Part shown: positions 3,393-27,521 of the stretch, piece after piece
Position numbering within the stretch: position 1 is the stretch's first letter
Layout: each line of letters begins with the position of its first letter
Virus record (IMG/VR): IMGVR_UViG_3300032213_003144
Span: 1-64,000 of that record
DNA: 64,000 nt
From: a virus
Direction: 5' to 3' (one strand)
Made by a program: the position numbers and the translations under genes
Notes under the pieces: model-generated
The model's input: the letters and a program-made list of their open reading frames with translations, nothing else
Told to the model about the DNA's origin: nothing
The model's database searches: none

Positions 3393-3651
3393 ATCTATAT
3401 TCTAGGGAACACCTGACAAGAAGTAAAGCATTTGATGAAAGTTCTCACGGGTTGCTAGTTAGCAAGTCTTGCGAATTAGAACTTATCGGAAGCCCCCCGT
3501 GTGATGGCCATAAAAGCACACAGGGGAAGCCCCGGCTTTTCCCCTGTGTGCTTGGGCGTGTGTGAGTTATCTATCAGGGAACTGGCGCACCCTTCGGGCT
3601 TGCCCTCAAAGTGGGGGGGTGGGTTTGGGGAGAGAACTCTCCCCTCGCCCG

Positions 3652-4050
3652 TCAGTAGCCCAAGACATTTTCGGCTGGAGTGCCTTCAGGGATGTACCCT
3701 GCGACCCACTCTCGGTTGAGACCACAGTCTGTCAGGAACTCGGCGAACTCGCTTGCCGATGTGTCACGCCAAGAGCCTGCGAGAGCCTCAACCATGCCGA
3801 ACGCAATCTGTGCGATGTGGAAGTGTGCGTCTCGGGAAATGGTGTCGTTCCAGTCGGACTCGGGTGTGTCCTTCTCCCAAGGGAAACCGCAGCGACCCTC
3901 GGTTGCGTCACGGTAGTCCTCGTAGTCAAGGCTGTCACGGCGCAACGCTTCGGTCTCGTAGTCGTGGTACGGCTCGGACATCAGACGCACCATGCGAGCG
4001 TGCGCCTGAATTGATTTGGCAACAATGGATTTTGCTTCATTGAGGTTCAT
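3652..4050 (-). CDS. hypothetical protein
   Basis: Start re-assigned to MNLNEAK, after an AAGGGA RBS and the promoter at 4081-4110. Confidence 0.7.
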   Translation of the reverse strand: MNLNEAKSIVAKSIQAHARMVRLMSEPYHDYETEALRRDSLDYEDYRDATEGRCGFPWEKDTPESDWNDTISRDAHFHIAQIAFGMVEALAGSWRDTSASEFAEFLTDCGLNREWVAGYIPEGTPAENVLGY

Positions 4051-4340
4051 GGTTTTCCCTTCGGTGTGTGGTGTGACATCAGCGTATCGGAAAGGGTACA
4101 GGCTTGACGAGTTATCTATTAGAGAAGGTCGGGTGCGTTTGAGTTTGGCCACAGAGAAACATCTGGGCTTTTGCGAAACATCTGGGCTTTTTATCGGAAG
4201 CCCCCCGTGACCAGAGCAGGTCAAAACATCGGGAAGCCCCGGCTAAAACTCGAAAAAAAAATGAAAGAAAACTGGCGCACCCAACGAAATGAGTTGGGCT
4301 TGCCCTCGGGGGGGGAGGGCAAGCACCAGTTATCTATTAG

Positions 4341-4691
4341 TCACTCCCAACTGATGAAGCCAGTATCTGGGTCGGTGTAGTTCGGAGCAGAGTGGTCTAC
4401 TGCGACTTCACTGAAACCCATCGGCTCGACACGGTACAACTTCACACCAATTCGGATTTCGTCACCAACACTCAACGCCGTGTGTGTCCGGTACGAAGCG
4501 AGTTGTGGCTCGATTTGTTCCCAGAGACGACCGGTGTACATGTTGGTCGCCATGAAAATCGCCTCGCAGATTGCGTCATGATTTTCCTCTGATGTGTCAA
4601 TGTCTCCGAAAAAGAGCGTGACGCTCGAGTGGAAACGTCCGGCGTCTTTGTCCTCCGGAAAAGCCTTCCAGTAAATCGTTCCTGTGTTCAT
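4341..4691 (-). CDS. YodL-like domain protein
   Basis: C-terminal TALSVGDEI...YRVEPMGF resembles the YodL SLSVxD...GF motif; promoter at 4723-4752. Confidence 0.55.
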   Translation of the reverse strand: MNTGTIYWKAFPEDKDAGRFHSSVTLFFGDIDTSEENHDAICEAIFMATNMYTGRLWEQIEPQLASYRTHTALSVGDEIRIGVKLYRVEPMGFSEVAVDHSAPNYTDPDTGFISWE

Positions 4692-4900
4692 GTGATGTCC
4701 CTTCGTTGTGTGGTGTACCACCACCATATCGGGAGCGTTACAGACTAGCCAGAGTTATCTATTAGTAAATCGAAAAAACGAGAATTTGTTATCGGAAGCC
4801 CCCCATCTGCCACAAAAAACCAGACCTACACAGACAGCCCCGCTCTACCTATAAGCTGTATTAGATAAATCTATCTAGAAGGTAAGTGAGAGGACAGACT

Positions 4901-5923
4901 ATGGCACACGGGTTAGAGATAACAGCAGATGGGGTAGCCCGTATGGCGTACTCCAATAGAGAGATACCGTGGCACAGGCTTGGGGTATCAATGAACGGGT
5001 TGCAGACAGTGGAAGCAATGCTTCAGGCTGCGAAGGCTGACTTCGACGTGGTTACAACACGGGTTGCTGTGTGTGACGATAACGGTGAGCCAATTAGAAA
5101 CCCAGACAATTCGCCAGTGCTCATCAATGACAGTCGCGCGACCGTACGGGTGAACAGCGACGGCACATTTGACGGGCTATCTACGGTTGGAACTCGCTAC
5201 GTAGTCCAACAGAACAAAGAGTGCATGGACTATGCGCTTGCGATAGTCGGCGCTAGCAAGGGTGACGCAGTAGTGGATACCTGTGGCGTTCTGAACGAGG
5301 GGCGTGAGTTTTTCGCCTCGCTCGACTTGGGCTCGCTAATCATTGACCCAATGGGCATAAACGACAGCATTGAGCGTTATCTATTAGTGAGAAACGGGCA
5401 CGACGGCAAGACGCCGATTACCTTCGCAAATACTTCTATTCGTGCCGTATGTAAGAACACGGTAATCGCTGGTATGAAAACTGCGAAGCGTGTGTTTACT
5501 GCTCGTCACACTAGAAACGTTGAGAGCGCAATAGAGCAGGCGAACGAGGTTCTCAATATCTCTAATGTCTGGGCTGCAGAATTTACAAGAACAGCAGAGA
5601 AACTTCTTTCGGTGAAAGTTGCACCTGGAACAAAGATATTCGGCGACGTGCTTGACGCTGTATTTCCTCTGGAGAGTGGCTCTACGTCAAGACAAAAGAA
5701 AAATAGAGATAATGTCTTGTCTCTTGTCAAGGGTGTTTATGAAAGTGACAACAATGCAAAGGGCTATGGGTATAACGGTTGGTCAATGCTGAACGCAATT
5801 GGTGAATACCTAGACCACTACCGAGAAGCAACACCGATAGAAAGAGCATTAGCGTCAATGGATAACAACTCTTGGGTAACTCGAGCCAAGATGATAGCTC
5901 AAGACAAACTCTTGTCAGTATAA
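4901..5923 (+). CDS. DUF932 / phage-plasmid-like protein (TIGR03299 type)
   Basis: PWHRLG, RYVVQQN, YLLVRNGHDG, IRAVCKNT and RHT motifs. Confidence 0.85.
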   Translation: MAHGLEITADGVARMAYSNREIPWHRLGVSMNGLQTVEAMLQAAKADFDVVTTRVAVCDDNGEPIRNPDNSPVLINDSRATVRVNSDGTFDGLSTVGTRYVVQQNKECMDYALAIVGASKGDAVVDTCGVLNEGREFFASLDLGSLIIDPMGINDSIERYLLVRNGHDGKTPITFANTSIRAVCKNTVIAGMKTAKRVFTARHTRNVESAIEQANEVLNISNVWAAEFTRTAEKLLSVKVAPGTKIFGDVLDAVFPLESGSTSRQKKNRDNVLSLVKGVYESDNNAKGYGYNGWSMLNAIGEYLDHYREATPIERALASMDNNSWVTRAKMIAQDKLLSV

Positions 5924-5976
5924 AAAGCATTTTCGGTTGTATCATTTATCTATAACCCCCACGAAGTGAGGCAGTA

Positions 5977-6420
5977 GTGAGCGAAGAACACGACGAAGAA
6001 GCATCGGACTTCCCAGATGACTTCTCTGATGACGCGCCAACTAGAGAAGAACTAGCTATTTGGCTTAGTGAGTTTATGTCGCAGTCGCAAAAAGCAACGG
6101 CAATGTACCGTAACCACTTCTGCAACCTACTAGTCGCAAAGCTTCACTACGAATTCGGCACCGAAGGTATGTGTGAACTGATGATGGCTATCGACAAGAG
6201 GGCTGGATGGGTGTCTGACATAATTATCGAGGACAACGATATTCATGATGTTCTATTCCGTGAATATGGTGTATTCGATAATGAAGCAATAATCAAGGCA
6301 CGGATGAGCAGCCAACTTACCGAAATGAATAAGAAAATATGGAGACTTAGAAAGAAGTACTCCAGACTTATCGCCGAAGAAATAGTCGCTGGCGCTAACG
6401 CCAGACACACAGAAGCGTAA
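5977..6420 (+). CDS. hypothetical protein
   Basis: 147-aa ORF with GAGG RBS. Confidence 0.7.
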   Translation: MSEEHDEEASDFPDDFSDDAPTREELAIWLSEFMSQSQKATAMYRNHFCNLLVAKLHYEFGTEGMCELMMAIDKRAGWVSDIIIEDNDIHDVLFREYGVFDNEAIIKARMSSQLTEMNKKIWRLRKKYSRLIAEEIVAGANARHTEA

Positions 6421-8391
6421 TTACCTCTTAGAGGCTCTCTCCATAAGGTTTAGTATCAACTGAACCGCACCCTCTGTCTCGGCGAACTCTCCGCCTTCTA
6501 CTGCAGCGTTTACAACTGACCTTTTGTTATCTATTAGTGTATAAATGTATTCATCTATGGTTCCGCTGGTCAGCATGTATGTAGCGGTCACAGAACCTTT
6601 CTGCCCGAGACGGTGAAGTCTCGAGTAGGTCTGGTCTACGTCTGCGGGTGTCCAGGGAAGTTCTATGAATAGGCACTCCTCGGATGAAGTTAGGGTGTGT
6701 CCTGTCTTTGCTGCCTGTATGGATAGCACGATTACTGGCGCTTCCTCTACCGATAGCGTCTGGAACTTCCTCTTGTTCTCCTCTACTTCCTCAACCTTCA
6801 TGCCACCCTGGATACGCAGACCGCCAAACTTTCTGGCTAGTTCGTCGACCACGTCTCTGTGGTGAGCAGCAACGACGACTTTCTTTCCATTATCTACTCT
6901 TTCTTGTATCCACTCCATGGCTGCTTCCATCTTGGCTTTAGCAGCAAGTCTCCTAAGGACTGATAGTCGTACGAGGTGTTCGTTCGCTTCTGCTCTAATC
7001 ATTGCTGACATAGCAGCGTTGTACGAAGGTAGTCCTTGCTCTATCGCCAATTGACGGGCTCTCTCTGCGATGTACATCAAGATGTCTTCTTCCGCCTTGA
7101 CGTATTCCTTCATTGCCGGCGCTGAACCGTCTACAACTAGTCGGCTATGTACTACGGGTGGTAACTCTGATAAGACTTGGTCCTTGGTTCTACGTATGTA
7201 GCATGCTCCACGTAGTCGTTCGTTTAGTTCGTCGAGGTGTGAGTTGCCACTTAGGTTCCATTGACCGAACCTGTCTTGATACGCTGCGCAATACCTTCGA
7301 TAGAAGCCCCATAGACCACCGAAGTCCTTCAGCCTTCCGAGTATGTCTAACTGACTTGCGTACTCTGCTGGTCTATTGGTTACGGGTGTTCCAGTTAGAC
7401 ACAGTACGGGTGTATTTTTCTTTGTACTTCTGGCTATCTTGACTGCCGCCTTTGTTCTTTGCGCTGTCGATGTCTTACAGTAATGACTTTCGTCAAATAC
7501 GTACGAGCCATGTTCCATTAGTTGGGACTGCCACGCTTGTATGTTGCTGTACCCAACGACAACGACGTCATAAGAGTTCTCGAGTGGGAAAGACTTTCTA
7601 TTGGTTACTGCGCTCACTCGTCTATGCGGTACCCACTTGGATATCTCGTATGACCAGTTCAGCACAAGGCTTGGTGGACAAACGATTACCGCTGGATAGA
7701 TATCTCCCTCACGTGACGACAGATATTCCAACGTTGCTATTGCTTGTATCGTCTTTCCTAATCCCATCTCGTCTGCGATAAACGTTCGTCTCGCGTTCGC
7801 AGCATAAGCAACTCCAGCTTTCTGGTACGGCAATAGTTCTCCGGTCAAACCGGGGACAACGATGTTGGCGTCTGTCGAGCGAGAAGCTTCTATCAGTGTA
7901 TTTATTTCAGTATTTACTCTTTGTAATATTGCTGTCACGCCGGCGTCTACGGGTACATCGAAACCGTTCGCCCACTCGATTACCTGTGTTATCGATGACA
8001 ATGGTGCGCGCCACGAATATCTATCGCCATCCCAGGACACGGCAGGTATCTTCTTTACCGCTGAAATAATTACTCTTTCGTACGGGAACTTCATGTAAAT
8101 CATTTCATCATGAAGTGATACTCGCTTATCCCCCTGTGACGTAATGCTTTTAGGAGCCTGGAATTTGAGTATGTCCGAAGTTATGTCGAACTCGTATTTG
8201 AGAGCGAACTCTCTGGCCGAAGCAATAGATGTTATTGGTACTCTCCAGATACGTGAGACCTTGTCCCACCTAGCTCCCTCGACACGCTTCATCTCGTTGA
8301 CCTGTTCCTGGTCGTACGGGAAGTCAAAGAGGAGCTCTTTCCCATCCAGATACATCTTCATCAGGGAAGTATATTCCAGATGGGTAACCAC
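6421..8391 (-). CDS. SNF2-family (HARP/SMARCAL1-like) helicase
   Basis: ADEMGLGKT, DESH, LTGTP, RRTKDQVLSELP and SRLHRLGQ motifs; two N-terminal HARP-like repeats (FPY...W.....W). Confidence 0.92.
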   Translation of the reverse strand: MVTHLEYTSLMKMYLDGKELLFDFPYDQEQVNEMKRVEGARWDKVSRIWRVPITSIASAREFALKYEFDITSDILKFQAPKSITSQGDKRVSLHDEMIYMKFPYERVIISAVKKIPAVSWDGDRYSWRAPLSSITQVIEWANGFDVPVDAGVTAILQRVNTEINTLIEASRSTDANIVVPGLTGELLPYQKAGVAYAANARRTFIADEMGLGKTIQAIATLEYLSSREGDIYPAVIVCPPSLVLNWSYEISKWVPHRRVSAVTNRKSFPLENSYDVVVVGYSNIQAWQSQLMEHGSYVFDESHYCKTSTAQRTKAAVKIARSTKKNTPVLCLTGTPVTNRPAEYASQLDILGRLKDFGGLWGFYRRYCAAYQDRFGQWNLSGNSHLDELNERLRGACYIRRTKDQVLSELPPVVHSRLVVDGSAPAMKEYVKAEEDILMYIAERARQLAIEQGLPSYNAAMSAMIRAEANEHLVRLSVLRRLAAKAKMEAAMEWIQERVDNGKKVVVAAHHRDVVDELARKFGGLRIQGGMKVEEVEENKRKFQTLSVEEAPVIVLSIQAAKTGHTLTSSEECLFIELPWTPADVDQTYSRLHRLGQKGSVTATYMLTSGTIDEYIYTLIDNKRSVVNAAVEGGEFAETEGAVQLILNLMERASKR

Positions 8392-8517
8392 TGACGGGCC
8401 ACGTACGAGCAGCCATCGAAGGGAAATAAGATGGTTCCCGTAGTGACCCGTCAGCCACCACGTGAGCCACCCTACAGATGCGGCATCAGACTAGCCACGG
8501 GATATCATGTAGTACCT

Positions 8518-8727
8518 ATGACCCAACCTATGTACTCTCTCTTTAAATGTGTTGTATGTGGTTTACCACTGGACCCGTCTAGCTCTAATTCGGAAAGGCT
8601 GGGCGTTGTCTGGCTTAAGTCAAACGGCAGGACGGTTAACCGGGTTGTAGAGGAACTTCACTCATACAAGCATGACTTCTGTAACGACAAGGGGATGACC
8701 GACTATGTGCAAGATGCGCTTTTCTAG
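8518..8727 (+). CDS. small zinc-finger-like protein
   Basis: CVVCG...HDFC; start uncertain. Confidence 0.5.
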   Translation: MTQPMYSLFKCVVCGLPLDPSSSNSERLGVVWLKSNGRTVNRVVEELHSYKHDFCNDKGMTDYVQDALF

Positions 8728-8984
8728 ACTGGCCGGACGGCTGCGAAACATACGGGCAGTTATCTATTGGAAGAAGAACAGTCTTCTCGCCCCACCATGT
8801 GAGTACTGCATATTCGAAGAGACAAAGATGCCTAATGCGCGTGGCCGGATGAAGTACTACCCGGTTTGGATTACATGTACGAATCCACAATGGGGTGGGC
8901 CGGCAAATGAAGGATGTCAGTGGGGAAACGTTTAAGTTATCGGAAGCCCCCCGTTTCCGGTTAGAGCGGGGCTCCGCCCACTTA

Positions 8985-9155: not shown

Positions 9156-9350
9156 GCGGCCATCGTATCACTGAAGGTACAGACTAGCCGAGTTATCTAT
9201 TAGAGAAAGACACCCCGGAATCATTTGCGGCCGTTACGCTTAGTTAGCCAACAAATCCACTCTGGGTTGAAGCCCCGGGGGAAACGGTTGACAACGGGGC
9301 TTCTTTCGCACGATGTTCGGCTCTGAGCACGGGGGGCTTCCGATAACCCA

Positions 9351-9510: not shown

Positions 9511-9583
9511 GTGTATTACTAATAGATAACTATTTACCGTGAGAGTGTGACGCGCAGAACGCGCCACACTCTCTAATAGATAA

Positions 9584-9925
9584 CTATTCGGCTAGTGCTT
9601 TGTGGATGTTGCCGACTAGTTCTTGAGCCTGTGAACCACGACCCAGTGAGCGCGTATTAGTGTCAGCGCCAATTTGATTCGCGAGCCAGTACAAAAACTC
9701 AAGGTTATACACTGCTTTTAGTTCTTGTACTACAGAACCATCATCAGCGAATATCGTTCCCTTGTATGTACCGTCAGACTCATGGGTCTGCACTAATCCT
9801 GCCTCGGTCAATTCACTTAGCGTGAAGTGTGGCGCGTAATACTCGGGATAGAACAAAGTATGTCCGTCTCCGATAATTATTTTTGCTTTTATTGCCTCAC
9901 GTACTTTTTCTTTTGTGATGTTCAT
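9584..9925 (-). CDS. hypothetical protein
   Basis: Start MNITKEK after a GAGGGG RBS. Confidence 0.7.
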   Translation of the reverse strand: MNITKEKVREAIKAKIIIGDGHTLFYPEYYAPHFTLSELTEAGLVQTHESDGTYKGTIFADDGSVVQELKAVYNLEFLYWLANQIGADTNTRSLGRGSQAQELVGNIHKALAE

Positions 9926-11531: not shown

Positions 11532-11755
11532 ATAACCAATGTACCAATTCAGTAACAGAATAGCAAGGGTTATCGGAAGCCCCCCGTGTTCTAGCTCAGA
11601 ACAAATCACCAGAAGCCCCGGCCAAAACGCTGGCGCACCCACCAAAAGAGGTGGGCTTGCCCTCAAAGTGCGGGGCTTGTCCCCCTGTCGAGCGGCTAGT
11701 CTGTACCCGGGTTGGTACGATGTCCGTCTACGGACATCTACCACAAGGAGCACAC

Positions 11756-12061: not shown

Positions 12062-12352
12062 ACTCCTCGCGGCGAGTTGCTCACGCACTTCGTGCGTGGG
12101 CTTCTCGCTTGGGAGAGCCCCGGCTCAACACGAAAACCGCGGGGCTTTCCCCTTCGGGGAAGGCTTCGGCGTCACGGGGGGCTTCCGATAACACGGCTGG
12201 CGCACACCTACGGTGTTTGCCCTCAACCTCGCAGGGCTACCTCTAATAGATAACTCTCGGACTAGGACAATCTCTAATAGATAACTAATGGTGGCAAGTC
12301 TGTAAGCGTCTTACTAGGCTTGTAGTACCACTACAACCACAAGGGGGCAAGT

Positions 12353-12838
12353 ATGAGCGAAGTACCAACCAACCGAATAGATGTTGCTGTTGCTTATTTG
12401 GAATTGCATTATCACGCTAATTCTTTCTATGCGAGTTTGTTCTATTCATTTCAGAAAAATGGAACTCTGACCATCAAGCAGATAGAAGCCGTTGAGAAAG
12501 ATATCGCTATTGCTGAATTGCGTGTCAAGTCGGAAGTAAATCCCGTGACTGTTATCGGTATGTACCGAAATGCTGACGGTGTGTTTCGTGTGAAGCAAAG
12601 CAAGGAAAGTGGCAATCTCTACGCTATGCGTCTTGTTCCAGAAGCAACCACCAAGTCAGAACGCTTTACATACGAGCGTGGTGGCATTTATAAACTCACG
12701 GCTGATAATCGTATGACCGTAGAGGAGTGCGCTGAACTTGGCTTGCTGTACTCAATGTGTGTCATCTGTGGCGCAGACCTCACCGACCCAAAGAGCGTTG
12801 CTCGGGGTATGGGTGCTACTTGTGCCAAGAACGTCTAA
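12353..12838 (+). CDS. DUF6011-type zinc-ribbon protein
   Basis: C-terminal CVICGADLTDPKSVARGMGATCAKN. Confidence 0.75.
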   Translation: MSEVPTNRIDVAVAYLELHYHANSFYASLFYSFQKNGTLTIKQIEAVEKDIAIAELRVKSEVNPVTVIGMYRNADGVFRVKQSKESGNLYAMRLVPEATTKSERFTYERGGIYKLTADNRMTVEECAELGLLYSMCVICGADLTDPKSVARGMGATCAKNV

Positions 12839-13514: not shown

Positions 13515-13769
13515 TTAGTTATCTATTGAGAATAGGTGAAGCGAGGTGCTTCGTGCTTCCCTGAATAAATATCCTGCGTCTGTAATCCACTTAGCAAATG
13601 CGTTCACCTCTGTAACAAGTTCGCTCATTGACACACCCCACTCTTTACATTGGTCATCAAAGTTGCCTTCGGCTATATCGCCCCAAACAGCCTCAATGGC
13701 TTGTGCGCCAGTTGTAGCGAGCGTGTAGTAATTCTCTGTAAGTATCAAAATTATTTCTTGTTTATCCAT
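13515..13769 (-). CDS. hypothetical protein
   Basis: 84 aa, preceded by TATGAT; ends in SIDN (13-bp box variant read in frame). Confidence 0.65.
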   Translation of the reverse strand: MDKQEIILILTENYYTLATTGAQAIEAVWGDIAEGNFDDQCKEWGVSMSELVTEVNAFAKWITDAGYLFREARSTSLHLFSIDN

Positions 13770-14064
13770 TTGCTCATCATACCGACACAGAACCTTTGCG
13801 ACTTATCGGAAGCCCCCCGTGTTCAGAGATGCGACAGCCCCACAGGGAAGCCCCGGCAAACACACCCGCCCGCGGGGCTTCTCCCCAGCTCGGCACCTGC
13901 GCGTCACGGGGGGCTCCCGATAACAAGCCCAGACGATTCACAACCTGCCGCGCGCTCTCGCGCTTGCCCACACGCGAACACGGCGCAATCTCTAATAGAT
14001 AACTTGGCAAGCCTGTACCAGCGCTGATATTCTAATAGATAACTACTACGAAGGGAGCAAGGTT

Positions 14065-14373
14065 ATGGGCAGAGTATTTGCAGAGGAATTGAGTAGCGAT
14101 GAGTTTGGTCTAGGTCTATCGGAGTCAATCCGTATTCACCTAGTGAGCAATCACTACCCACCAGTTCCAGCGTCAATGGTGCCAGTGTGCATGCAAGCGA
14201 TTCAGAGTTACAACGAGAATATGAACGGCGATGAGCGCTTGGAATTGCCTAACGGCGTATCGTGGCGAGGCGAGGCAACCGCGCCAGCATGGGCAATCAT
14301 TGAGAGTCACCACCTGCATGCTTGGTGCGATTCAGACGAGGATTACTACGATGAAGAGGGAGACGCGCAATGA
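14065..14373 (+). CDS. hypothetical phage protein
   Basis: AAGGGAG RBS; HLVSNHYPPVP motif. Confidence 0.7.
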   Translation: MGRVFAEELSSDEFGLGLSESIRIHLVSNHYPPVPASMVPVCMQAIQSYNENMNGDERLELPNGVSWRGEATAPAWAIIESHHLHAWCDSDEDYYDEEGDAQ

Positions 14374-14657: not shown

Positions 14658-14962
14658 CGCGAAGTTATCTATTAGTGATTCACGCCGATTCACTGATAGA
14701 TAACTCTGCATCGTGTGGGCAAGCGCGTGAGCGCGCGCCAGCGTTTGTCGAATGGCGTCGGGAGCTCGGTGCGGGGGAAGCCCCGCGGGGAACGGCGCTA
14801 GCCGGGGCTTATCCCCGAGCGATAGGCTCTGTTTGGACACGGGGGGCTTCCGATAACTCTCTGCTGTTTCTTTCTTTCTTTCTTATTCTGTGAGGGTGCT
14901 TGACTTTCTTTCCAGAGTTACCTAACCTAATAGATAACTACTAACCACAAAGGGGATACGCA

Positions 14963-15265
14963 ATGAACGCAAAGGAATTAGAACGACAAGAGAGAATAGA
15001 CGCACATTATCGGGCGTTAGCAAAAAACATTTGGCTATTTGGTCTTGCCAGTGTCATTGTTTCTCTTTTGATTTTTTTCGGTATGTCTAGTCCGTCTTAC
15101 TCTTGCCCTAATATCACGGTCACTGTTCAGCAAGGTGACACGCTTGACGGGATTATTCGTGAACACTGTTCAGGTACTTACACTGACGCACTTGACGATA
15201 TTGTGAGCGAATACGGCACGACTATCTACGCAGGGCAGACCGTCACACTTCCAGACGGTAACTAA
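14963..15265 (+). CDS. membrane-anchored LysM-domain protein (paralog of 2810-3142)
   Basis: TM helix plus VTVQQGDTLDGII...IYAGQTVTLP. Confidence 0.75.
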   Translation: MNAKELERQERIDAHYRALAKNIWLFGLASVIVSLLIFFGMSSPSYSCPNITVTVQQGDTLDGIIREHCSGTYTDALDDIVSEYGTTIYAGQTVTLPDGN

Positions 15266-15955: not shown

Positions 15956-16304
15956 TGCTTTCGGGTTATCTATTACTAATAGATAACTATTCCACCAATA
16001 CAAATAAAACAAAATCTCGACGCAAGCGCAACGAAGCCCCGCCAACGAAGTTTGACGCGGGGCTTCAACCTGCTCGCACGAACTGGTGTTCGCAAGCATT
16101 ACACGGGGGGCTTCCGATAAGTTTCGCTTTCCTGTGGGTGGGCGCAGGGGGTTTCTTTATTTACTCTTTATTATATTGACGGTGGTGGAAGACCCTTTCC
16201 CTAATAGATAACTATGGGTGTGGCTAGTCTGTACCTTGACTGATACGCTGACATCACTCCCGTTGTACCACCACAACTAGACCCAACTGGAGTGGAGAGA
16301 TAAA

Positions 16305-16733
16305 ATGACTAAGCCCATATCCATCAAAGTCAAGGTGAGTTCGCTCATCTCGGCTTTGGAGAAATCATTGGCAGAACGCAAGAAGCGTTACGAAACGCAA
16401 GAGCAAGAGGAAGCCAAGTTTGAGAAGGCAACAGAGGCGTACAACCTCTCTGTGCTGAAACTCATCAAGGCAGGCAAGGGAAACATTGAGGAAGCCTCAC
16501 GCAACCATTGGCACGACAGAAACAACAAGAACAAGGGAAAAGTTGCTTTTTCCGTAGTCGTTATGTTGCCTGCTGGTGCTTTGCCAAATGAGCCTGAGCG
16601 ACCTGAAAGTTACTCGGAGCGTGAGTACAAGCGAGATAGCGAAGCAATCTCACAAGCAATCCGTGTGCTGAAAATGTCCGAGCAAACAGAAGTCTCGGCA
16701 AGCACATACAAAGGCGTGGCTGAATACCTGTAA
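16305..16733 (+). CDS. hypothetical protein
   Basis: GGAG RBS; promoter at 16220-16249. Confidence 0.75.
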   Translation: MTKPISIKVKVSSLISALEKSLAERKKRYETQEQEEAKFEKATEAYNLSVLKLIKAGKGNIEEASRNHWHDRNNKNKGKVAFSVVVMLPAGALPNEPERPESYSEREYKRDSEAISQAIRVLKMSEQTEVSASTYKGVAEYL

Positions 16734-16797: not shown

Positions 16798-17240
16798 ATC
16801 GGTGAAGTTATCTATAAAAGATATGGCGATTACCTCTAATAGATAACTCTAAACGCACTCCGATACACAGACGCTCGTAGTGTCTCGTTCGCATTACGCA
16901 GTTCGGCAATCTCTCTCTCAAGAGCGTTGAGCCTCTGTCGTGTTGCCAAGAAATCAAACTTATTGGAAGCCACCCGTGATATCGGGACAATGCTGGCAAG
17001 GGAGCCCCGGCTTTGATGCCTTCTCGACGGGGCTTCCTTCGGAGAAGGAACGCCTGCTGACACGGGGGGCTTCCGATAACTCTCGCCTTTGTCGCTCACT
17101 CACACACAGTAGCCCGAACGGGTGTTCGTATGCCCCAAGTCTCTAATAGATAACTGTCAAGGTATGTTGGAAAGTCTGATACTCGGGGTGTAGGGTAGTG
17201 GCTAGCCACAACCCACACCAACTAGAAAGAAGGTAATCAA

Positions 17241-18152: not shown

Positions 18153-18463
18153 TTATCTATGAGAGAGTGGTGCGAAATCCGTGCCACTCTCTCACGGAAG
18201 TATTACTAATAGATAACTCTCTCTAATAGATAACTCCAATTCCGTCAGGGGGAAGCCCCGCTGGAACGGCTTTCTGTCGGGGCTTCCCCCGAAGGGGAAG
18301 GCTTCGGCGCATACGGGGGGCTTCCGATAACTGGCGCACCCTGTCGCTTCGCTTCGGGTTTGCCCACAAGTGAGCCGACTATCCCTAATAGATAACTTGG
18401 TAAGTCTGTACCGTGCCTAGTATGATGAACTTGTAAGTAACCACCAACCACGAAGGGAATACC

Positions 18464-18910
18464 GTGAACATTACAGAGTTAGCCGAGAAAGTAGAAAGCG
18501 AAGTCAATGACAACCTTGGGTTTGACCTAAAGCAAGCCCTACTTGTATCCGTTACAGACGGACTATTTGGAATTGAGTTGTCCGACCCACTCGCACACGG
18601 AGATGTGTACGAACTCATTGAGAGTGACGCTTCATTGGAATTGGCGAAGCGTTCAGCCTTTATCGCAATTGTTACTTGTGGTTGGGCTGCGCCTATCCGT
18701 GCCAATGATGATGATGAAGTAGCACCAAGCCAACACCCTGACCGTAGGCGTGTCCGTCTAGTCGTACTCGCTAGCCGTAGTTCGGTAGCAAGTGTGCTTC
18801 GCTTTAGCGATACACCTGATGAGACAGTTACAGATGAAGGCAAGGCTACGGGTTCGCTCGCAGACGCTATTCTCAAACTGATGGCGCAGAGCGCAAGTCA
18901 CCTGAACTAA
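18464..18910 (+). CDS. hypothetical protein
   Basis: GWAAP...PSQHPDRRRVR; promoter at 18397-18426. Confidence 0.7.
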   Translation: MNITELAEKVESEVNDNLGFDLKQALLVSVTDGLFGIELSDPLAHGDVYELIESDASLELAKRSAFIAIVTCGWAAPIRANDDDEVAPSQHPDRRRVRLVVLASRSSVASVLRFSDTPDETVTDEGKATGSLADAILKLMAQSASHLN

Positions 18911-19149
18911 TAGATAACTCAAACTCTCGCCACGACACTCACCACCCCCCGAGTGTCGTGGCGTTAGTTATCTAATAGATAACTCAAACCAACTCGGCGC
19001 ACTCGGTCGGGGGGAAGCCCCGCCACCAACGCTTTTGGCCGGGGCTTTTTCGAGCTGAAAGCAAGAGCGCAACACGGGGGGCTTCCGATAAGTTGGCAAG
19101 TCTGTACCGTGTCCAGTATGATGACATCACCTAACCACAAGGAGAAAAA

Positions 19150-20297: not shown

Positions 20298-20555
20298 CTA
20301 ATAGATAACTCGAATATTTTCTCAAAGAAGCCCCGCGTGCAACAAATGGGGCGGGGCTCCGACCTGACGAAGGCAGGCTCGGTGGACGGGGGGCTTCCGA
20401 TAACCAAGCAGTCACGGGGGGCTTCCGATAAGTCGGGCGCAGAAACTTGTGGGTCACTCTCTAATAGATAACTTTATATGACGGTGGTGGATGAGTTGTC
20501 AAGTCTGTACCTGTGGGGATATAGTGGGTCATACCACAACTACCTAAGGAACGAC

Positions 20556-21335: not shown

Positions 21336-21557
21336 ATGAGTACCATGATTCAGAAAGAATCCAAGAAAATTGCACTACGACTACTCCGTGAGCGTCAAGA
21401 GCGAGAGTGGTCACAGCAGGAACTTGCCGACAAGGCAGGAATTGACAGAAAAACCGTGAATCGTATTGAGAACCTTCACTTCTCACCGAGCATGGAAACA
21501 TTTCTGCGCCTATGCAATGCAATGAAAGTTCAGGCACACGAAGTACTAAAGGGTTAA
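21336..21557 (+). CDS. XRE-family HTH transcriptional regulator
   Basis: WSQQELADKAGIDRKTVNRIEN....PSMET. Confidence 0.9.
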   Translation: MSTMIQKESKKIALRLLRERQEREWSQQELADKAGIDRKTVNRIENLHFSPSMETFLRLCNAMKVQAHEVLKG

Positions 21558-21676: not shown

Positions 21677-22354
21677 ATGTCAGAAAATACTGATGATTTC
21701 CGAAACCAAAAAATGTTCTCCGTCTTAGAGGACGCTATGGAACGAGCGATGTACGCAAAGACCGAGATGTGCAAAGATGAACCGATGTCCGACAACCCAC
21801 CGATGTTGCTGGTTGGATACGACAAAAAAAATGTAGAGGAAAAAACACGCCTGACCATTGGTGACGATGATGAAAGTGAAATGCAAATTGGCATGGTTCC
21901 ACTGATTCACAAGGACGATGTTCGTGAGTGCTTGGTGGACGCTATCGGCGCAATTCCAACTCAAAAGTTTGAGTTCTTGATTCTCGCAGTTGAGGGATAC
22001 AAAGACACAATGACAGAAAACGGAGAAATGCCCGAAGGCTGGTCAAGGGGTGACTTGGGCAAAGACTTTAAGGAGAACCCTTTCACGACTGTTAAAGAGG
22101 GCGTAATCGTGAGTGGCGTTGACTGGGAACATGAATACGCAATAAACGGCGCATGCACATACTCCTACGATGACAAGGGCGTTCCACAGTGGGATGAAGT
22201 TATGTGGTCTGAAATTGAGATTTCAGAGGAGACTGGCATGATGACATTTATCATGGCGAGTGCCTGTGAGTTTATGAAAAAGAAAATAATCACAGAATCC
22301 TTCCACGCACTGTTGGAAGCAACACCGAAAAAATCAAAGAAAGACAAGGAGTAA
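21677..22354 (+). CDS. hypothetical protein
   Basis: AAGGAG RBS; promoter at 21618-21647; stop lies in a box variant. Confidence 0.75.
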   Translation: MSENTDDFRNQKMFSVLEDAMERAMYAKTEMCKDEPMSDNPPMLLVGYDKKNVEEKTRLTIGDDDESEMQIGMVPLIHKDDVRECLVDAIGAIPTQKFEFLILAVEGYKDTMTENGEMPEGWSRGDLGKDFKENPFTTVKEGVIVSGVDWEHEYAINGACTYSYDDKGVPQWDEVMWSEIEISEETGMMTFIMASACEFMKKKIITESFHALLEATPKKSKKDKE

Positions 22355-22363
22355 TAGATAACT

Positions 22364-22519
22364 ATGGGTGACGATGTAATCGCACAAGTTACGACACTTG
22401 TTGACAAGGCAATAAACACAATATCGGGCAGAGAGTTGGTAGCGTCAGCCGAAATGGTTGACCTACTACTTGACATCCGACTACTACTACTAGACACAGA
22501 AGCAAAGGAAACAGCATGA
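22364..22519 (+). CDS. small hypothetical protein (51 aa, not in ORF track)
   Basis: MGDDVIAQVTTLVDKAINTISGRELV...; ATGA coupling to the next gene. Confidence 0.6.
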   Translation: MGDDVIAQVTTLVDKAINTISGRELVASAEMVDLLLDIRLLLLDTEAKETA

Positions 22520-22881
22520 CAACGCACCTAACCAACGAGGAACGCATGAACCCGTTCATGTCAGACAACTTTGATGTTGATGACCTGTCACTCATAACAG
22601 AGGCAATAGGTCTATACATTGAGAACGACTCTCGCTTGATGTACAACGCACCACAAGTTATGGAAGTTGCGAAAATCCAAAACGATGATGAGCGTATGCA
22701 GGCTCTCTCGCAACTGAAACCGAAGTTTGAGGGTCAGCCACTATCCGATGAGGAACTGGACCGACTATTACTAATAGATAACTTAGTGCTTGACGCTATG
22801 GGCGTGAAAGAAGCAGAGAGCGAAGTTGACGGAGTTATCTATTCATTGGAAGAACACCTTAAGAAAAATGGAAAGGAGTGA
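22516..22881 (+). CDS. hypothetical protein
   Basis: 121 aa; contains an exact 13-bp box read as LIDN. Confidence 0.7.
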   Translation: MTTHLTNEERMNPFMSDNFDVDDLSLITEAIGLYIENDSRLMYNAPQVMEVAKIQNDDERMQALSQLKPKFEGQPLSDEELDRLLLIDNLVLDAMGVKEAESEVDGVIYSLEEHLKKNGKE

Positions 22882-23157
22882 GTGGCGACACTTCGCCGTT
22901 CGAAGCCCCGCTGCGAGCACAAAAAAAATGAAAAAAATCAAACTTTTCAGAACGTGCGCTGCCACCGCCACCACCACCGCCGCCGCCGGCCGCAGGACTG
23001 TACAAAAAAATCGTTTTATTTGACGGTGGCGGATGAGCCGGTGCGCATTGTAGACCTATGGAAAAATCCAGTTTATAAATAGGTGTATTGCTAGTCTGAT
23101 GCCCGCTCATTACACTGAGTCCATAGATAACTTTTACCCAAGAAAGCAGGGATTACT

Positions 23158-23643
23158 ATGCAGTCAATAACCGAACAATTCGTGAACAGCGTTAATAAGG
23201 AACTATGGGACGAAGCAACCGAGAGGCATAAATCCAAGTTCGCCGTTCCAGCAGATGAGGTTAACTACATAGGAGAAATTGTTCGTGGACTCCATGTACT
23301 AGGGATATGGCAAAGAGAGGGTCAGGCTCGCCCGCCCGAATCTTTCCTGCGGTCTTACTCTGTTCTGGATTTCGTGATTCCTGACCTACTCCAGAAATAT
23401 TTGGGTAAATCTACGGTCTTGTCGCTCGACGAGATAAAGCCAGAAAAACGAGAAAAGAAGTGGGGTGCTTTCATTGAGTGGGCAAAACTTCACGAAGCAG
23501 AACAGTTCACCACCGAACAACTTGTAGAGATATGTGGTTTCTCCTACCCGACCACGCTTGAGTACCTACGGATTTCTCCATACTTCAGGAAAATCAAGAA
23601 GGGTCTTTACGAAGTTATTGACCCCAAGACTCAAGACAAGTAA
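23158..23643 (+). CDS. hypothetical protein with C-terminal winged-helix-like segment
   Basis: FTTEQLVEICGFSYPTTLEYL....FRKIKKGLYEV. Confidence 0.65.
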   Translation: MQSITEQFVNSVNKELWDEATERHKSKFAVPADEVNYIGEIVRGLHVLGIWQREGQARPPESFLRSYSVLDFVIPDLLQKYLGKSTVLSLDEIKPEKREKKWGAFIEWAKLHEAEQFTTEQLVEICGFSYPTTLEYLRISPYFRKIKKGLYEVIDPKTQDK

Positions 23644-24011
23644 TTACTTCTAATAGATAACTTTTTCTCCTTTTTCTTCTTTTCTTAGGAGAGCCCCGGC
23701 CAACTCGCCGACAGGGCGGGGCTTCGCTCGGGGAACGAGCAAGCAGGCACACGGGGGGCTTCCGATAACTCTCTCGGCTGGACGGGGGGCTTCCGATAAC
23801 GCTGGCGCACCCTTCGCTTCGCTCGGGCTTGCCCACGCACCCACCGACTCTCTCTAATAGATAACTCCGAGCGCACCCTTTCTAATAGATAACTCTCTAA
23901 TAGATAACTCGCTACATATATAAATAGTCATAAATAAATGTTGGCTAGTCTGTACCCTTCCCGATACAGTGGGTCTTGCCATACCAACCACAACAAACAA
24001 GGAGAAAGAAA

Positions 24012-24734
24012 ATGGCAGATACAGCAACCAAACTCCCCGAGTGCTGGCAAGCACTAGAGGACACACTCAACGCAGGCATTGACCGTGTGATTCTGTACGG
24101 ACCTTCGGGTATCGGAAAGACTTACGCAGGTCTAACGACTGGCGATGTTGAGGCAGGCGCATACCGACTGGTATGCACAGAGGACATGACCAACATGGAT
24201 GTCACAGGTGGATTCATGCCAAACGGCAAGGGTGGATTCCAATGGCTCAATGGCTCGGCTCTCAAGGCTTGGCAGGGAAATGGGGTCAAGGGTGGTCGGC
24301 TCATCGTGGATGAAGTTGACAAGGCTTCGGGCGATGTGTTCGCAACACTTCTCTCCATGCTTGATTCCCCTGAATCGGCTTCGTATGAACACCCTGAAAA
24401 TGGTGAAATCATCCGACCACTTGCAGGATTCTCTGCAATTATGACAACCAACATTGAGACAATGGGCGAACTCCCTACGGCTCTTGCTGACCGATTCCCA
24501 ATTCGTATCCGTATTGACAAGCCACACCCACAAGCGTTGCTTCGTCTTTCGGCTGACCTTCGTGACTATGCAGTTCGCATGGCTGACGCTGGTGATGACA
24601 GAATCTCACTCCGAGCCTTCATCGCTCTTGACACACTTCGCAAGAGTGTAGGTATGGAACGAGCATGCCAGTTGACCTTCGGGCGCAGGGCAAAGCAGAT
24701 TCTTGACGCTATTGCAGTGGACATGGTGAAATAA
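24012..24734 (+). CDS. MoxR/CbbQ-like AAA+ ATPase
   Basis: Walker A GPSGIGKT, Walker B LIVDEVD, sensor TTN, ALADRF. Confidence 0.88.
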   Translation: MADTATKLPECWQALEDTLNAGIDRVILYGPSGIGKTYAGLTTGDVEAGAYRLVCTEDMTNMDVTGGFMPNGKGGFQWLNGSALKAWQGNGVKGGRLIVDEVDKASGDVFATLLSMLDSPESASYEHPENGEIIRPLAGFSAIMTTNIETMGELPTALADRFPIRIRIDKPHPQALLRLSADLRDYAVRMADAGDDRISLRAFIALDTLRKSVGMERACQLTFGRRAKQILDAIAVDMVK

Positions 24735-24736
24735 CC

Positions 24737-26290
24737 ATGTCACGACACTCAATTCCAACCTCAACCACAGTGGGGAAAGCCTTCCCTACCTCAATAGATA
24801 ACTCCGAGAGGGGGTCGGCTCAAGCAGAGCCGACCCTAATCGGGCGTTCCGACATGGAACATGGTAAGTGGCATGTAGAACACTGCCGAGCAGTGCGAGG
24901 CGAGCCAAAGACAAATGTTCTTAACCGAGTTATGTACGCACCTACCGATGATGATGAAAAGGCTCGGGCAATTCGGGCGCACGAACTCATGCATGCAAAA
25001 GTTTCACCTGCAAATGACATGGACGCTTGGGTGGGTAGGCAAATTGCCTCTGCACAAGCACTCATCGTTACAGAGGAATTGCGTGTCAATTACCTATGCA
25101 CCAAAGCAGGGTTTGACATGTCTCATCTCGCTGACGGAAGTGAAACGGCAGACGGAGAGCGCATGGGTGCAACGAAAGACTGGGCTGGTTGTGTCGCTAC
25201 AGCAGTGGCAACAGCAGGAACAGGTGCAAACAAATTATTCCTCAATGGAGTTCGCAGGCACAACCGAGAGTGGGGAGAAATCCTTCTCAAGATATCGAAA
25301 AGAGCAGTGAAAGAAATCAAGAAAGCCGATAAAGAACGGAATCTCGCAAGCACAGAAGCAGACGGGAACACTGGTCTATCGCCTATTGGTTTCGCTCACA
25401 CAGAACGAATTGCCGAGTGGGTGGACAGGCTCGCCATGTTCCCACCACCACCCGAGCCACCAAAAAAAGCGAAAAAAGCAGGTGACTCCAAGTCGGGTGA
25501 GGGTGACTCTCCAATAGATAACTCCTCTAGTGAAGTTGCCCACAGCAATAAAGGCAAATCGGAGACAGGAAACAAGGAAGGTAATCCTGACCTTGACAAA
25601 ATCACTCCAACGGAAGCGACTAGAGGAATACCTCGTTGGGGAGAACTCCGAATTGAGCGTTGCCCAATGCCAAAATACAGCAAGGGTCATATCGGTAAGA
25701 AGCGAATTGCAACGAACATGGGTCGCAGACCACGCCGTATGCACCGTCTATTGACCGACCCCTCAATGCGAGTGTTTGACCGTACCGTTCGTGGTAGTGG
25801 TGGCATGGTAATTCTTGACGCAAGTGGGTCAATGTCTTTCACCGAGAATCAAATTGCTGAAATCTTGGAACATGCACCTGGCGCAACTATCGCCATGTAC
25901 ACCGACAAAGGCAACGAAGGAACGAACATGTTCATTGTTGCTGACAAAGGTCGCATGGTTGAGCAACTACCTGACTACGGATACGGCAACGGAGTTGACT
26001 TCCCTGCCATTGAGTGGGGCGTGAAAAACAAAGCGCAAAAGAACTCGCCTTTAGTGTGGGTTACTGATGGTGGAGTGTGTGGACATAATGACGGGTTTCA
26101 CGGAGTACTGTCTATGCAGTGCCTCACCTACGCTCGTAAGAACAAATACATAATTGTTCCCCACGCAGACGAAGCCATAAAGCAACTGAAACAACTATCC
26201 AGTGGTGGCAAGGCTCGTAGCGTTTATCCAGCCATGTTCAGGCAAGTGTGGCGAGAAGCAAACGGTAACGAACTCCCATACTCTGAATAG
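24737..26290 (+). CDS. HExxH metallopeptidase-like plus VWA domain protein
   Basis: RAHELMH...EE in the N-terminal half; MIDAS DASGS and VTDG in the C-terminal half. Confidence 0.75.
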   Translation: MSRHSIPTSTTVGKAFPTSIDNSERGSAQAEPTLIGRSDMEHGKWHVEHCRAVRGEPKTNVLNRVMYAPTDDDEKARAIRAHELMHAKVSPANDMDAWVGRQIASAQALIVTEELRVNYLCTKAGFDMSHLADGSETADGERMGATKDWAGCVATAVATAGTGANKLFLNGVRRHNREWGEILLKISKRAVKEIKKADKERNLASTEADGNTGLSPIGFAHTERIAEWVDRLAMFPPPPEPPKKAKKAGDSKSGEGDSPIDNSSSEVAHSNKGKSETGNKEGNPDLDKITPTEATRGIPRWGELRIERCPMPKYSKGHIGKKRIATNMGRRPRRMHRLLTDPSMRVFDRTVRGSGGMVILDASGSMSFTENQIAEILEHAPGATIAMYTDKGNEGTNMFIVADKGRMVEQLPDYGYGNGVDFPAIEWGVKNKAQKNSPLVWVTDGGVCGHNDGFHGVLSMQCLTYARKNKYIIVPHADEAIKQLKQLSSGGKARSVYPAMFRQVWREANGNELPYSE

Positions 26291-26420
26291 ATAACTTCTC
26301 GCCTACCGAGTTCCCACCAGTTCTCGGTAGGCAGAGTAAGCAACTACCCACCTGTTCGGCTTTCTCCTTTCAGGTGGGTAGTTCGCTATCCCCTAATAGA
26401 TAACTAAGAAAGAGGAAAAA

Positions 26421-26636
26421 ATGAGTGACAACGAAACACTTGATGAATCACTAGAGAACCTGCAAGACAGTCTGCAACATGCAATTCACATACTGCAAGG
26501 GATTCTTGATGATATTGAGGACAATGGATACACCCAACAGCAAGCGACACTGGATTACGAAAACATAGTGTGGAACGAAGGCATTGACTTTATGAGTGCA
26601 TTAGAATCGTTTGCATTATTCTCTCCAGCAAAATAG
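26421..26636 (+). CDS. hypothetical protein
   Basis: GAGG RBS. Confidence 0.65.
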   Translation: MSDNETLDESLENLQDSLQHAIHILQGILDDIEDNGYTQQQATLDYENIVWNEGIDFMSALESFALFSPAK

Positions 26637-26679
26637 TTCCAGCAACCTCTAATAGATAACTCTAAGAAAAGAGAAAAAA

Positions 26680-26982
26680 ATGAAAATCAAAAAGAAAAAG
26701 AAAGAGAAGCCGAGCAAATTAAGAAAGCAGATAAATGAACACCTAGAGTCAATGGGTGAGAACGCATTACTCATGGACGGGTTTGATGAAGCACTCATTG
26801 GATTCTCTCAACGAATAAATGAGCCTTTATTGGCAGTTTATTCGTGGGAGAAAATGATGACAGTGTGCATTGAGCGTGACGGTATGGACGATGAGGAAGC
26901 AGAGGAGTACATCAGTTACAACTGCATTGGTGCATGGGTAGGCGAGCAGACACCGATTATTGTTATGCCAGTTCTTTACTAA
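26680..26982 (+). CDS. conserved hypothetical phage protein
   Basis: DGFDEALIG...AVY...EEAEEYISYN.IGAWVGEQTP. Confidence 0.75.
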   Translation: MKIKKKKKEKPSKLRKQINEHLESMGENALLMDGFDEALIGFSQRINEPLLAVYSWEKMMTVCIERDGMDDEEAEEYISYNCIGAWVGEQTPIIVMPVLY

Positions 26983-27007
26983 TAGATAACTAACGAAAGC
27001 GAAAACT

Positions 27008-27298
27008 ATGAACTATGAAGTTATCTATTATGTACTATTCGTGACCCTATTGGGAATCGCATTACACGCACACACACTCACGCTCGTTCGCTTGATGAGA
27101 CACCGTGTACCAGTTGTATCTCTAATAGATAACTCTCTAACGCTCTACGCTCTCCCTAGAGGACGCTACGACAGAACCAATGGCTCGCTCTATCGTGCGT
27201 ACAAGGACGAACAGGGCAGACACAGCGAGAGCCTGTGGGAACGACAACGCCCACGAAACGACTTCGGCACTTCGCAACACTCTGGTCACGCCGAGTAA
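27008..27298 (+). CDS. putative membrane protein
   Basis: N-terminal hydrophobic helix; contains the last exact 13-bp box. Confidence 0.5.
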   Translation: MNYEVIYYVLFVTLLGIALHAHTLTLVRLMRHRVPVVSLIDNSLTLYALPRGRYDRTNGSLYRAYKDEQGRHSESLWERQRPRNDFGTSQHSGHAE

Positions 27299-27521
27299 AG
27301 AAAGCGAATAAATCACAGAAATTGCCACGAAGCCGAAGGAAGCCCCGCCGAAAACGGATTTGCGCGGGGCCTCTTCTCGAGAGCTGACAACCATTGAAGA
27401 ATATTTAGAAAATTGATTTAATTCTCTTCTTGATGATTTACCGGACGGAGGAGGGGGTCTCATGAAAATTCCTTTTCTTATATGACGGTGGTGGATGACT
27501 CTGGCGGACTGGGTTCTTTAA

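Follow-up and report, generated by a model that had tools for sequence, protein, structure and literature searches.

The early-gene block of an uncultured phage, virus record IMGVR_UViG_3300032213_003144, carries a many-copy intergenic module of 90 to 120 bp that stands between small gene cassettes. In it, a palindrome with two arms, AGCCCCG and CGGGGCT, 16 to 18 nt apart, is followed at a nearly fixed distance by an 18-bp G-rich word, box B (ACGGGGGGCTTCCGATAA). The element is real, strongly constrained, and family-wide. We analyzed the first 64 kb (hereafter the window) of this 170,425-bp record (genome G000), which is rated complete by CheckV, and compared it with relatives of the phage. 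With a probability of about 0.5, we read the module as a protein-bound upstream and boundary element of early promoters that doubles as the joint at which gene cassettes are exchanged. The reading is grounded in the architecture of the module, its invariance, its length constraints, the lack of an RNA signal, its promoter context, and the enrichment of breakpoints beside it; from these observations we infer that a protein binds, what it may be, and in which direction it would regulate.

Architecture of the module in the early-gene block

A search of the window for AGCCCCG-N14-20-CGGGGC, with each match read on both strands, revealed 11 copies of AGCCCCG-N16-18-CGGGGC(T), against a chance expectation of 0.01. 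They start at positions 9271, 12116, 13849, 14779, 16035, 17003, 18254, 19016, 20329, 23692, and 27341, and their loops are 17 nt long in seven cases, 16 nt in two, and 18 nt in two. Box B, searched for as GGGGGCTTCCGATAA, matched the window 19 times at up to two mismatches (0.05 expected). The whole genome carries 20 copies of it, all between 3.4 and 23.8 kb except one at 169688, so that the early-gene block continues across the ends of the contig. All these boxes belong to the early-gene block, always lie between genes, and point in the direction of the downstream gene. Likewise, all module copies of the window are intergenic and fall inside the block, which extends from 2.3 to 27.4 kb and consists of approximately 50 small genes in two divergent arms.

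The distance between CGGGGCT and box B is 27 nt for the boxes at 9329, 12174, 17062, 19074, 20386, and 23751, and 26 nt (13906), 28 nt (18313), 29 nt (14839), or 38 nt (16103) for the others. Two units are dyad-symmetric, with an additional box on the left at 28 nt (13803-13923) or 25 nt (16960-17079). The copies of the minus arm (3483, 4191, 4789, and 11570) show only the half-site proximal to the box, at 26 to 29 nt, and the palindrome at 27341 is alone, without a box. An initial annotation of the window, made by a model from the letters alone, had listed 11 palindromes with arms 16 to 18 nt apart (mostly 17), spacers of 27 nt in six copies, 26 to 29 nt elsewhere, and 38 nt at 16103, and full symmetry at the same two places; our tabulation reproduced all these counts, coordinates, and lengths. 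Its claim that the spacer sequence is free was mostly right, with two qualifications: about half of the palindrome loops contain a weak one-sided AAAC(G) motif, and some of the spacers between palindrome and box hold a GGCTCTG-like word or a small hairpin. A dyad-symmetric motif in the center of the loops proved to be an artifact of symmetrizing, and once the loops were oriented the AAAC motif was one-sided.

Box B is itself composite. It joins a copy of the palindrome half-site (GGGGCTTCC) to GATAA, the core of a 13-mer, CTAATAGATAACT, of which the box tail is a variant. The initial annotation had missed this relation, as well as the presence of the module throughout the family and its coincidence with the breakpoints of cassette shuffling. 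The 13-mer occurs 60 times in the genome at up to one mismatch, with 59 copies in or beside the early block (from 2335 to 27134 in the window, and also at 169766 in G000) and one at 34148. It is oriented with the genes and often covers stop codons, and inverted pairs of it bracket the hairpins at gene ends; many start codons are preceded by it at a distance of 12 to 25 nt, and it also lies immediately upstream of −35 elements. Read along with the genes, a typical intergenic region starts with the stop codon, followed by the 13-mer, often an ordinary short-loop hairpin, the palindrome, the 27-nt spacer, and box B. After the box come sometimes a CTGGCGCACC...GGGCTTGCCC hairpin, then again the 13-mer, a sigma-A-like promoter, the Shine-Dalgarno sequence, and the ATG.

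The units of the window are the following:

13803-13923, unstranded: symmetric module with palindrome 13849-13879 at the center, box B(-) 13803-13820 on the left, and box B(+) 13906-13923 on the right; the neighboring genes, 13515-13769(-) and 14065-14373(+), are divergent; box B(-) 13803 directly adjoins the sigma-A-like promoter TCGCAA-N17-TATGAT
16960-17079, unstranded: second symmetric module, in which palindrome 17003-17034 (18-nt loop) lies between the degenerate box B(-) 16960-16977 on the left and box B(+) 17062-17079 on the right
9271-9346, plus strand: module with palindrome 9271-9301, 27-nt spacer, and box B 9329-9346; faces approximately 250 gene-free nt
12116-12191, plus strand: module with palindrome and box B separated by 27 nt; precedes gene 12353-12838
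14779-14856, plus strand: module with palindrome and box B separated by 29 nt; precedes gene 14963-15265
16035-16120, plus strand: module with palindrome (16-nt loop) and box B separated by the outlier spacer of 38 nt, which belongs to the second length mode; precedes gene 16305-16733
18254-18330, plus strand: module with palindrome, 28-nt spacer, and box B; left edge of mobile cassette 18278-18974
19016-19128, plus strand: module with palindrome, 27-nt spacer, and box B 19074-19091, which is directly fused to the sigma-A-like promoter TTGGCA-N18-TATGAT; right edge of the same cassette
20329-20431, plus strand: module with palindrome (16-nt loop), 27-nt spacer, and two tandem boxes B (20386, 20414)
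23692-23799, plus strand: module with palindrome (18-nt loop), 27-nt spacer, and two tandem boxes B (23751, 23782)
27341-27370, unstranded: lone palindrome, boxless, in the convergent gap that closes the early block
3483-3537, minus strand: half-module with box B(-) 3483-3500; the sole, proximal half-site (AGCCGGGGCT, minus strand) is 27 nt upstream of the box
4191-4244, minus strand: half-module with box B(-) and the proximal half-site at 26 nt; edge of cassette 4244-4820
4789-4845, minus strand: half-module with box B(-), a ATGGGGGG variant, and the half-site at 29 nt
8937-8975, minus strand: box B(-) with an atypical AGCCCCGC word close by and no half-site at the usual distance
11570-11625, minus strand: half-module with box B(-) and the proximal half-site at 26 nt

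Further repeats accompany these units. The hairpin CTGGCGCACC-(variable apical stem)-GGGCTTGCCC was found at 3582-3606, 4272-4306, 11630-11663, 12197-12222, 18331-18365, 23802-23834, and 14717-14745, with compensatory changes in its apical stem (CCCAAC/GTTGGG versus CCCACC/GGTGGG). A T-run follows it in one orientation, as in a terminator; in the other, the hairpin stands directly after box B. The segment 9347-9585, downstream of box B(+) 9329, ends in a strong hairpin between two 13-mers and is convergent with gene 9584-9925(-); it may correspond to a short noncoding transcript or to an empty cassette. Another repeated word, TAT(A/C)(T)TGACGGTGGTGGA(A/T)GA, occurs at approximately 16172, 20476, 27473, and 29812 and thus reaches past the early block. 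The commonest 12-mers of G000 include a tetranucleotide repeat, (ACCT)n/(AGGT)n, with approximately 15 copies.

Conservation across the family and RNA-level analysis

Scanning close relatives with the exact pattern gave 49 unique palindrome-box units, which fall into 24 sequence families. All their loops measure 16 to 18 nt and their spacers 25 to 29 nt, with a few spacers at 15 and at 37 to 38 nt. Divergent relatives were collected by a protein search with the early SNF2 helicase (352 loci), and many of the loci kept are only 59 to 72% identical to the query. In four relatives (G001 to G004), GCCCCG-N14-20-CGGGGC occurs 5 to 14 times per genome, always in one block of approximately 6 to 19 kb, while control patterns match 0 to 1 times. 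Across the family the arms are perfect in 77 of the 81 boxed units, and none shows a compensated change. The palindromes of divergent relatives are flanked at approximately 28 nt by (A/T)CGGGG(G/T) and a tail resembling the 13-mer of the lineage, e.g., GGTAGATAAGTC, ACTAGATAAGT, GAGTAGATAACT, or GGTGTAGGTAAGT; AAAGGATAATGTAA and AATAAAGATAGC are further lineage variants of the 13-mer. The tail of the box therefore covaries with the high-copy 13-mer of each lineage while the arms stay invariant.

The lengths are constrained in a particular way. Among five divergent genomes, the offset from the end of the arm to the G-tract is 28 to 32 nt in 43 cases, 33 to 37 nt in 3, 38 to 42 nt in 10, and 43 to 46 nt in none, and a broader, more redundant set gives the same picture. 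The loops of the same five genomes measure 16 to 20 nt (n = 55) or 25 to 27 nt (n = 6), with none at 21 to 24 nt; in a wider set of loops from the family, both modes recur, along with a few loops at 23 to 24 nt. Both gaps thus have a second mode approximately one helical turn above the first. The initial annotation had proposed a conserved length without a conserved sequence and, for the outlier at 16103, an extra helical turn; the former holds across deep divergence, and the latter agrees with second spacer and loop modes approximately 10 nt above the main ones. Two distant relatives depart from the common arms. In L125 (6558, 9052, 9497, and 12443), both arms have changed together, to AGCCCAG-N27-CTGGGCT, and L116 (293-7628) has everted arms, GGGGCTTC-N22-25-GAAGCCCC, which precede a repeated word and a promoter of its own. 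Such arms could be explained by a hairpin as well as by a coevolving dimer.

Constrained lengths could in principle reflect an RNA fold. The loops do not fold better than shuffled sequences (mean z = +0.15), their sense and antisense energies do not differ (P = 0.91), and the spacers reach a mean z of −0.5, with hairpins in only about half of the units. RNAalifold, run on 24 family representatives, recovered nothing beyond the invariant stem (covariation term, +0.2). Outward from the stem, covariation does not exceed that of shuffles (172 to 249 of 500 trials), and the apparent stem extension is accounted for by flanks rich in purines on the left and in pyrimidines on the right. No strand bias was observed there (G-T versus A-C mismatches, 49:43), and Rfam 15 gave no match at E ≤ 1 over positions 2000 to 28000 on either strand. 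Moreover, perfect copies at 13803-13923 in the window and at position 7108 in L065 lie between divergent promoters, with no mapped promoter transcribing them. These results favor a role at the DNA level; the initial annotation had argued against an RNA structure, and one of the two findings that it named as refuting its view, a conserved fold across the spacers, was sought with a negative result.

The same results make it very unlikely that the module is a cis-acting RNA element of read-through transcripts, in which a hairpin and a linear box would be bound by an RNA-binding protein and serve as a processing site or a nut-like antitermination site. Both strands of a perfect palindrome would yield the same stem sequence, a hairpin with a conserved linear box behind it is reminiscent of the nut sites of lambda, and one compensatory change was found in a spacer hairpin (CCTG/CAGG to ACTG/CAGT in L029). 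Nevertheless, the overall lack of strand bias, covariation, and loop or spacer structure, together with the position of copies between divergent promoters, where they would not be transcribed, and the absence of an Rfam match, argues against it.

The main rival, which we regard as unlikely, also involves an RNA hairpin. It likens the module to the promoter-early stem-loops (PeSLs) of T4-type phages (Arbiol et al. 2010, PMC2839356; Comeau et al. 2014, PMC4122927), terminator-promoter cassettes in which the palindrome would form a hairpin terminating or insulating the transcription of the upstream cassette, in either direction. Box B would then be a promoter or part of one, read by a phage-modified host RNA polymerase or an unrecognized phage polymerase, and the fixed spacing would be inherited from an ancestral cassette and kept by gene conversion. 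Location and evolutionary behavior are alike, since both elements lie between small early open reading frames (ORFs) and mark the sites of indels and replacements (PMC2839356, PMC4122927), and the stem-loops of RB49/phi1 PeSLs likewise have the form G(n)-loop-C(n). The predicted stem energies of the palindrome, −11 to −20 kcal/mol, would permit a hairpin. Yet its unstructured loops of 16 to 18 nt, flanked by TTC or TCC and without T-runs, are unlike those of intrinsic terminators, and ordinary hairpins with short loops and variable sequences are already present at many gene ends of the phage. A plain hairpin would drift, whereas the arms stayed invariant and uncompensated over 59 to 72% protein divergence. 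The copies between divergent promoters have nothing to terminate, and the gap at 33 to 37 nt followed by a second mode at 38 to 42 nt is not expected from descent alone.

Cassette exchange, promoter context, and candidate proteins

Of 37 distinct breakpoints between close relatives, 13 fall within 40 bp of a module (9.6% expected; P = 2e−5), although the ends of high-scoring segment pairs tend to lie beside conserved blocks, which may inflate this enrichment and is a first point against our reading. Three cassette events are explicit. The cassette 18278-18974, which contains gene 18464-18910, is located between the 11.6-kb and 12.1-kb units in five relatives; three others lack it, as their 18330|19006 junction shows. 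The cassette 4244-4820 is missing from three relatives, and in L035 box B 4789 is the site of an additional cassette of 719 bp that has a box B at each end. Inverted boxes also surround each one-gene cassette of relatives. With the same conserved blocks on both sides of every cassette, the modules serve as crossover points for the gain, loss, and movement of cassettes. This comparative evidence shows that cassettes have been swapped at the module, the crossover role being a side effect.

Such precise movement raises the question of site-specific recombination, with the modules as integron attC-like or resolvase res-like sites and the arms and boxes as core and accessory sites. Module-bounded cassettes are moved, lost, or inserted exactly there, the inverted boxes around the one-gene cassettes fit this explanation, and fixed-spacing multibox sites are typical of res and att sites. 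We nonetheless consider it very unlikely. Tyrosine and serine recombinase domains (PF00589 and PF00239) are absent from the complete genome, while the controls were positive in 14/14 and 12/14 genomes, and no integrase was found; the recombinase core and arm sites that the initial annotation offered as one option are not supported. Without an encoded recombinase, homologous or microhomology recombination between identical 18-bp and 7-bp blocks is the simpler route and explains the crossovers equally well. The gene-proximal polarity of the box and its fusion to promoters point instead to the control of expression.

This control would involve a family of approximately 17 sigma-A-like promoters, TTGGCTAGTCTGTACC-N7-GATAcgaT, whose spacer is conserved to an unusual degree; downstream of it come ACCACAAC, the Shine-Dalgarno sequence, and the ATG. 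In the window, they were located at 4104, 4746, 9185, 10389, 11698, 12297, 14010, 15283, 16226, 18403, 19099, 20502, 21624, and 23947. Box B stands directly before such a promoter in 2 of its 20 copies, 19074 and 13803(-), where it replaces the 13-mer immediately upstream of the −35 element. In L065 (genome G001), box and promoter are commonly fused: the gene-side box runs directly into the promoter, with TAGATA of the 13-mer in place of the −35 element, then AGTCTG(A/T)ACC, and after six further bases TGGTAnnnT. The fusion places the G-tract near −39 to −48 and the center of the palindrome near −91. In relatives, a box is always present on the gene-proximal side, and the distal box is optional.

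The promoter context also bears on the part of the PeSL-type explanation that makes box B a promoter. The box is a contiguous, invariant block of 18 bp, co-oriented with the genes and sometimes in tandem, and its tail varies with the lineage as phage-specific promoters do. By inspection of the sequence, however, no −10-like element follows it at a fixed distance, separate sigma-A-like promoters are present, and the genome has no detected T7-like RNA polymerase or sigma-70 region 2 domain, the former result being weak. Several polymerase readings were rejected. As a sigma-70-type promoter, box B has neither a −10 at a fixed distance downstream nor a −35 upstream; as sigma-54 or extracytoplasmic function (ECF)-type elements, the box and the loop word GGAAC have misfitting spacings. 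An N4-like virion RNA polymerase using hairpin promoters was rejected because the 3,694-aa polyvalent protein of the phage is not a polymerase and the other giant proteins have no polymerase match. PF00940 (T7-like RNA polymerase) is absent from the genome, although its controls could not give a signal, and PF04542 (sigma-70 region 2) is absent as well.

For a protein-bound upstream element, these observations suggest the following model. A sequence-specific protein, probably a dimer, would bind the arms AGCCCCG and CGGGGCT across a spacer of 16 to 18 bp that it does not read, as phi29 p4 does on CTTTTT-N15-AAAATG. It would make a second contact at the G-rich box, at a distance of 27 ± 2 bp or of one helical turn more. 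The box tail, a lineage variant of the 13-mer, would abut or overlap the −35 region of a sigma-A-type promoter, and the complex might activate, silence, or insulate the promoter or promoters of the cassette, in one or both directions. The multisubunit complex put forward in the initial annotation agrees with the length constraint and with the copies between divergent promoters, but no binding protein could be identified; the location of its contacts on one face of the DNA is not supported, since the center-to-center distances are not whole turns of the helix.

These distances, approximately 23 to 24 bp from arm to arm and 35 to 37 bp from arm to box, are one of several points that weigh against the model. 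Apart from the two fused copies, box B is 25 to 165 bp from the nearest sigma-A-like promoter, and the interval is filled by hairpins and 13-mers, so that the phasing is between palindrome and box rather than between palindrome and RNA polymerase. The second length mode has a modest weight, with 10 of the 13 offsets in the 33-to-42 range in its upper half (binomial P of approximately 0.05). In four copies of the window, no other hairpin intervenes between the stop codon and the palindrome, and the lone palindrome at 27341 closes the early block in a gap between convergent genes, a place at which one expects a terminator. Because the arms do not vary, they hold no information on covariation, and a hairpin may form despite the negative RNA tests. 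A hairpin also explains the variant arms of L125 and L116 at least as easily as a protein site. Finally, the early proteins encoded from 2.8 to 27.3 kb have no recognizable DNA-binding domain except for one XRE-type helix-turn-helix (HTH), and a conserved protein with an HA domain and an HTH is also encoded by a complete relative with only two palindromes (G006).

The Pfam scan of 30 early proteins detected no DNA-binding domain. The Pfam-confirmed candidates in the window are three:

21336-21557: XRE HTH
27522-27980, minus strand: HA domain plus HTH
36645-37085: MarR-like

The HA-plus-HTH protein, the one shared with G006, is encoded beside the last palindrome. Its HTH is C-terminal, and its stretch GKSLREIAD.FDLSRQRVHQI is identical in five lineages whose helicases are 59 to 72% identical. 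The recognition helices of this protein and of the XRE protein are identical in the five divergent lineages, indicating that neither tracks the 13-mer of the lineage; covariation of either protein with the 13-mer was rejected on this basis. Such invariance is compatible with an invariant target.

A broader version of the protein-bound element can be put forward only tentatively and is rather unlikely. The 120-bp dyad unit (box, N28, arm, N17, arm, N28, box) would be the assembly site of an undescribed, helically phased nucleoprotein complex and the hallmark of a large family of uncultured actinobacterial phages. A conserved factor would read the arms and a lineage-specific factor the 13-mer tail, and together they would switch or insulate all early cassettes and define the units of exchange. 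If true, this would amount to a regulatory "cassette grammar" without a characterized counterpart.

The phage itself is a myovirus, as shown by its portal, sheath, and major head proteins. Two WhiB-family genes above the Pfam cutoff, 33260-33451(-) in the window and 151964-152185(+) in G000, indicate an actinobacterial host, and the hosts of this family of myoviruses of roughly 150 to 170 kb are probably actinobacteria. Its capsid protein is less than 50% identical to those of Brevibacterium and Gordonia phages, and no DNA match to a close cultured relative was found in the phage collection. The 3,694-aa head protein (G000 114047-125131, plus strand) is polyvalent, with an N-terminal prohead protease, ArdC, a zincin metallopeptidase, and a UvrD-type helicase; it also shows a weak sigma-70 region 4-like HTH.

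Comparison with known systems

Outside T4, little is understood of the way in which the early regions of large phages are switched and shuffled, and most of the genes in these regions are small and have no known function. The module provides a precise landmark in such a region, with invariant arms and a geometry rule of fixed gaps with a second class approximately one helical turn longer. In many uncultured phages of the family, every early cassette is marked by the module, which can serve as bait for the regulator and helps annotation by delimiting early cassettes in metagenomic phage genomes.

In several traits it resembles PeSLs: a short, conserved composite motif flanks small early ORFs in a plastic region, an inverted repeat with G/C arms lies upstream of a promoter, and the indels and replacements between close relatives fall at the motif. 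It differs from them in having invariant 7-mer arms with a gap of 16 to 18 nt instead of a short loop and an additional 18-bp box at a fixed 27 ± 2 nt or approximately 10 nt more. Its sigma-A-like promoter is separate, often 25 to 165 bp further on, many of its units are dyad-symmetric, and the phage is not T4-like.

In geometry, the module resembles the sites of phi29 p4, a dimer whose fold has no known relatives; at a long site between the divergent phage promoters A2c, A2b, and A3, it reads the two ends alone (PMC3100819). In both cases, inverted 6- to 7-mers are separated by a long fixed spacer (15 bp for p4, 17 bp here) that is largely unread, and several sites lie between divergent promoters, as at 13803-13923. 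The p4 sites act on promoters with poor or occluded −35 elements, an action that is predicted for the module. The arms of the module are G/C-rich, however, the A-tract dependence of p4 was not seen, no homologue of p4 is known in the phage, although no search aimed at one was made, and there are 11 to 20 module copies per genome versus 4 p4 sites.

In actinobacterial phages, the 13-mer resembles stoperators or start-associated sequences (SAS). SAS and their extended form (ESAS) are repeats of Cluster K mycobacteriophages (Pope et al. 2011, PMC3203893), whose function is still unknown (PMC12699233). Here, too, a many-copy asymmetric 13-bp motif lies just upstream of starts, and a subset has an upstream inverted repeat. 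ESAS have imperfect 17-bp arms with a 4- to 13-bp spacer and adjoin the SAS, whereas the module has perfect 7-bp arms, a gap of 16 to 18 bp, and a 27-bp spacer leading to the box; the SAS includes the ribosome-binding site, which the 13-mer excludes. Like the 13-mer, the stoperators of Cluster A mycobacteriophages (PMC9283540, PMC6550527) are asymmetric 13-bp sites that number in the tens, occupy short gaps between genes, frequently cover stop codons, follow the direction of transcription, and vary between lineages. They have no palindrome partner, and the phage studied here is large, with no integrase found.

The closest systems are thus PeSLs in place and evolutionary behavior, the p4 sites in geometry, and SAS/ESAS, and the element is a member of none of them. 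After the PeSLs of T4-type phages, it provides a second, independent example of regulatory repeats that serve as joints of modular gene exchange.

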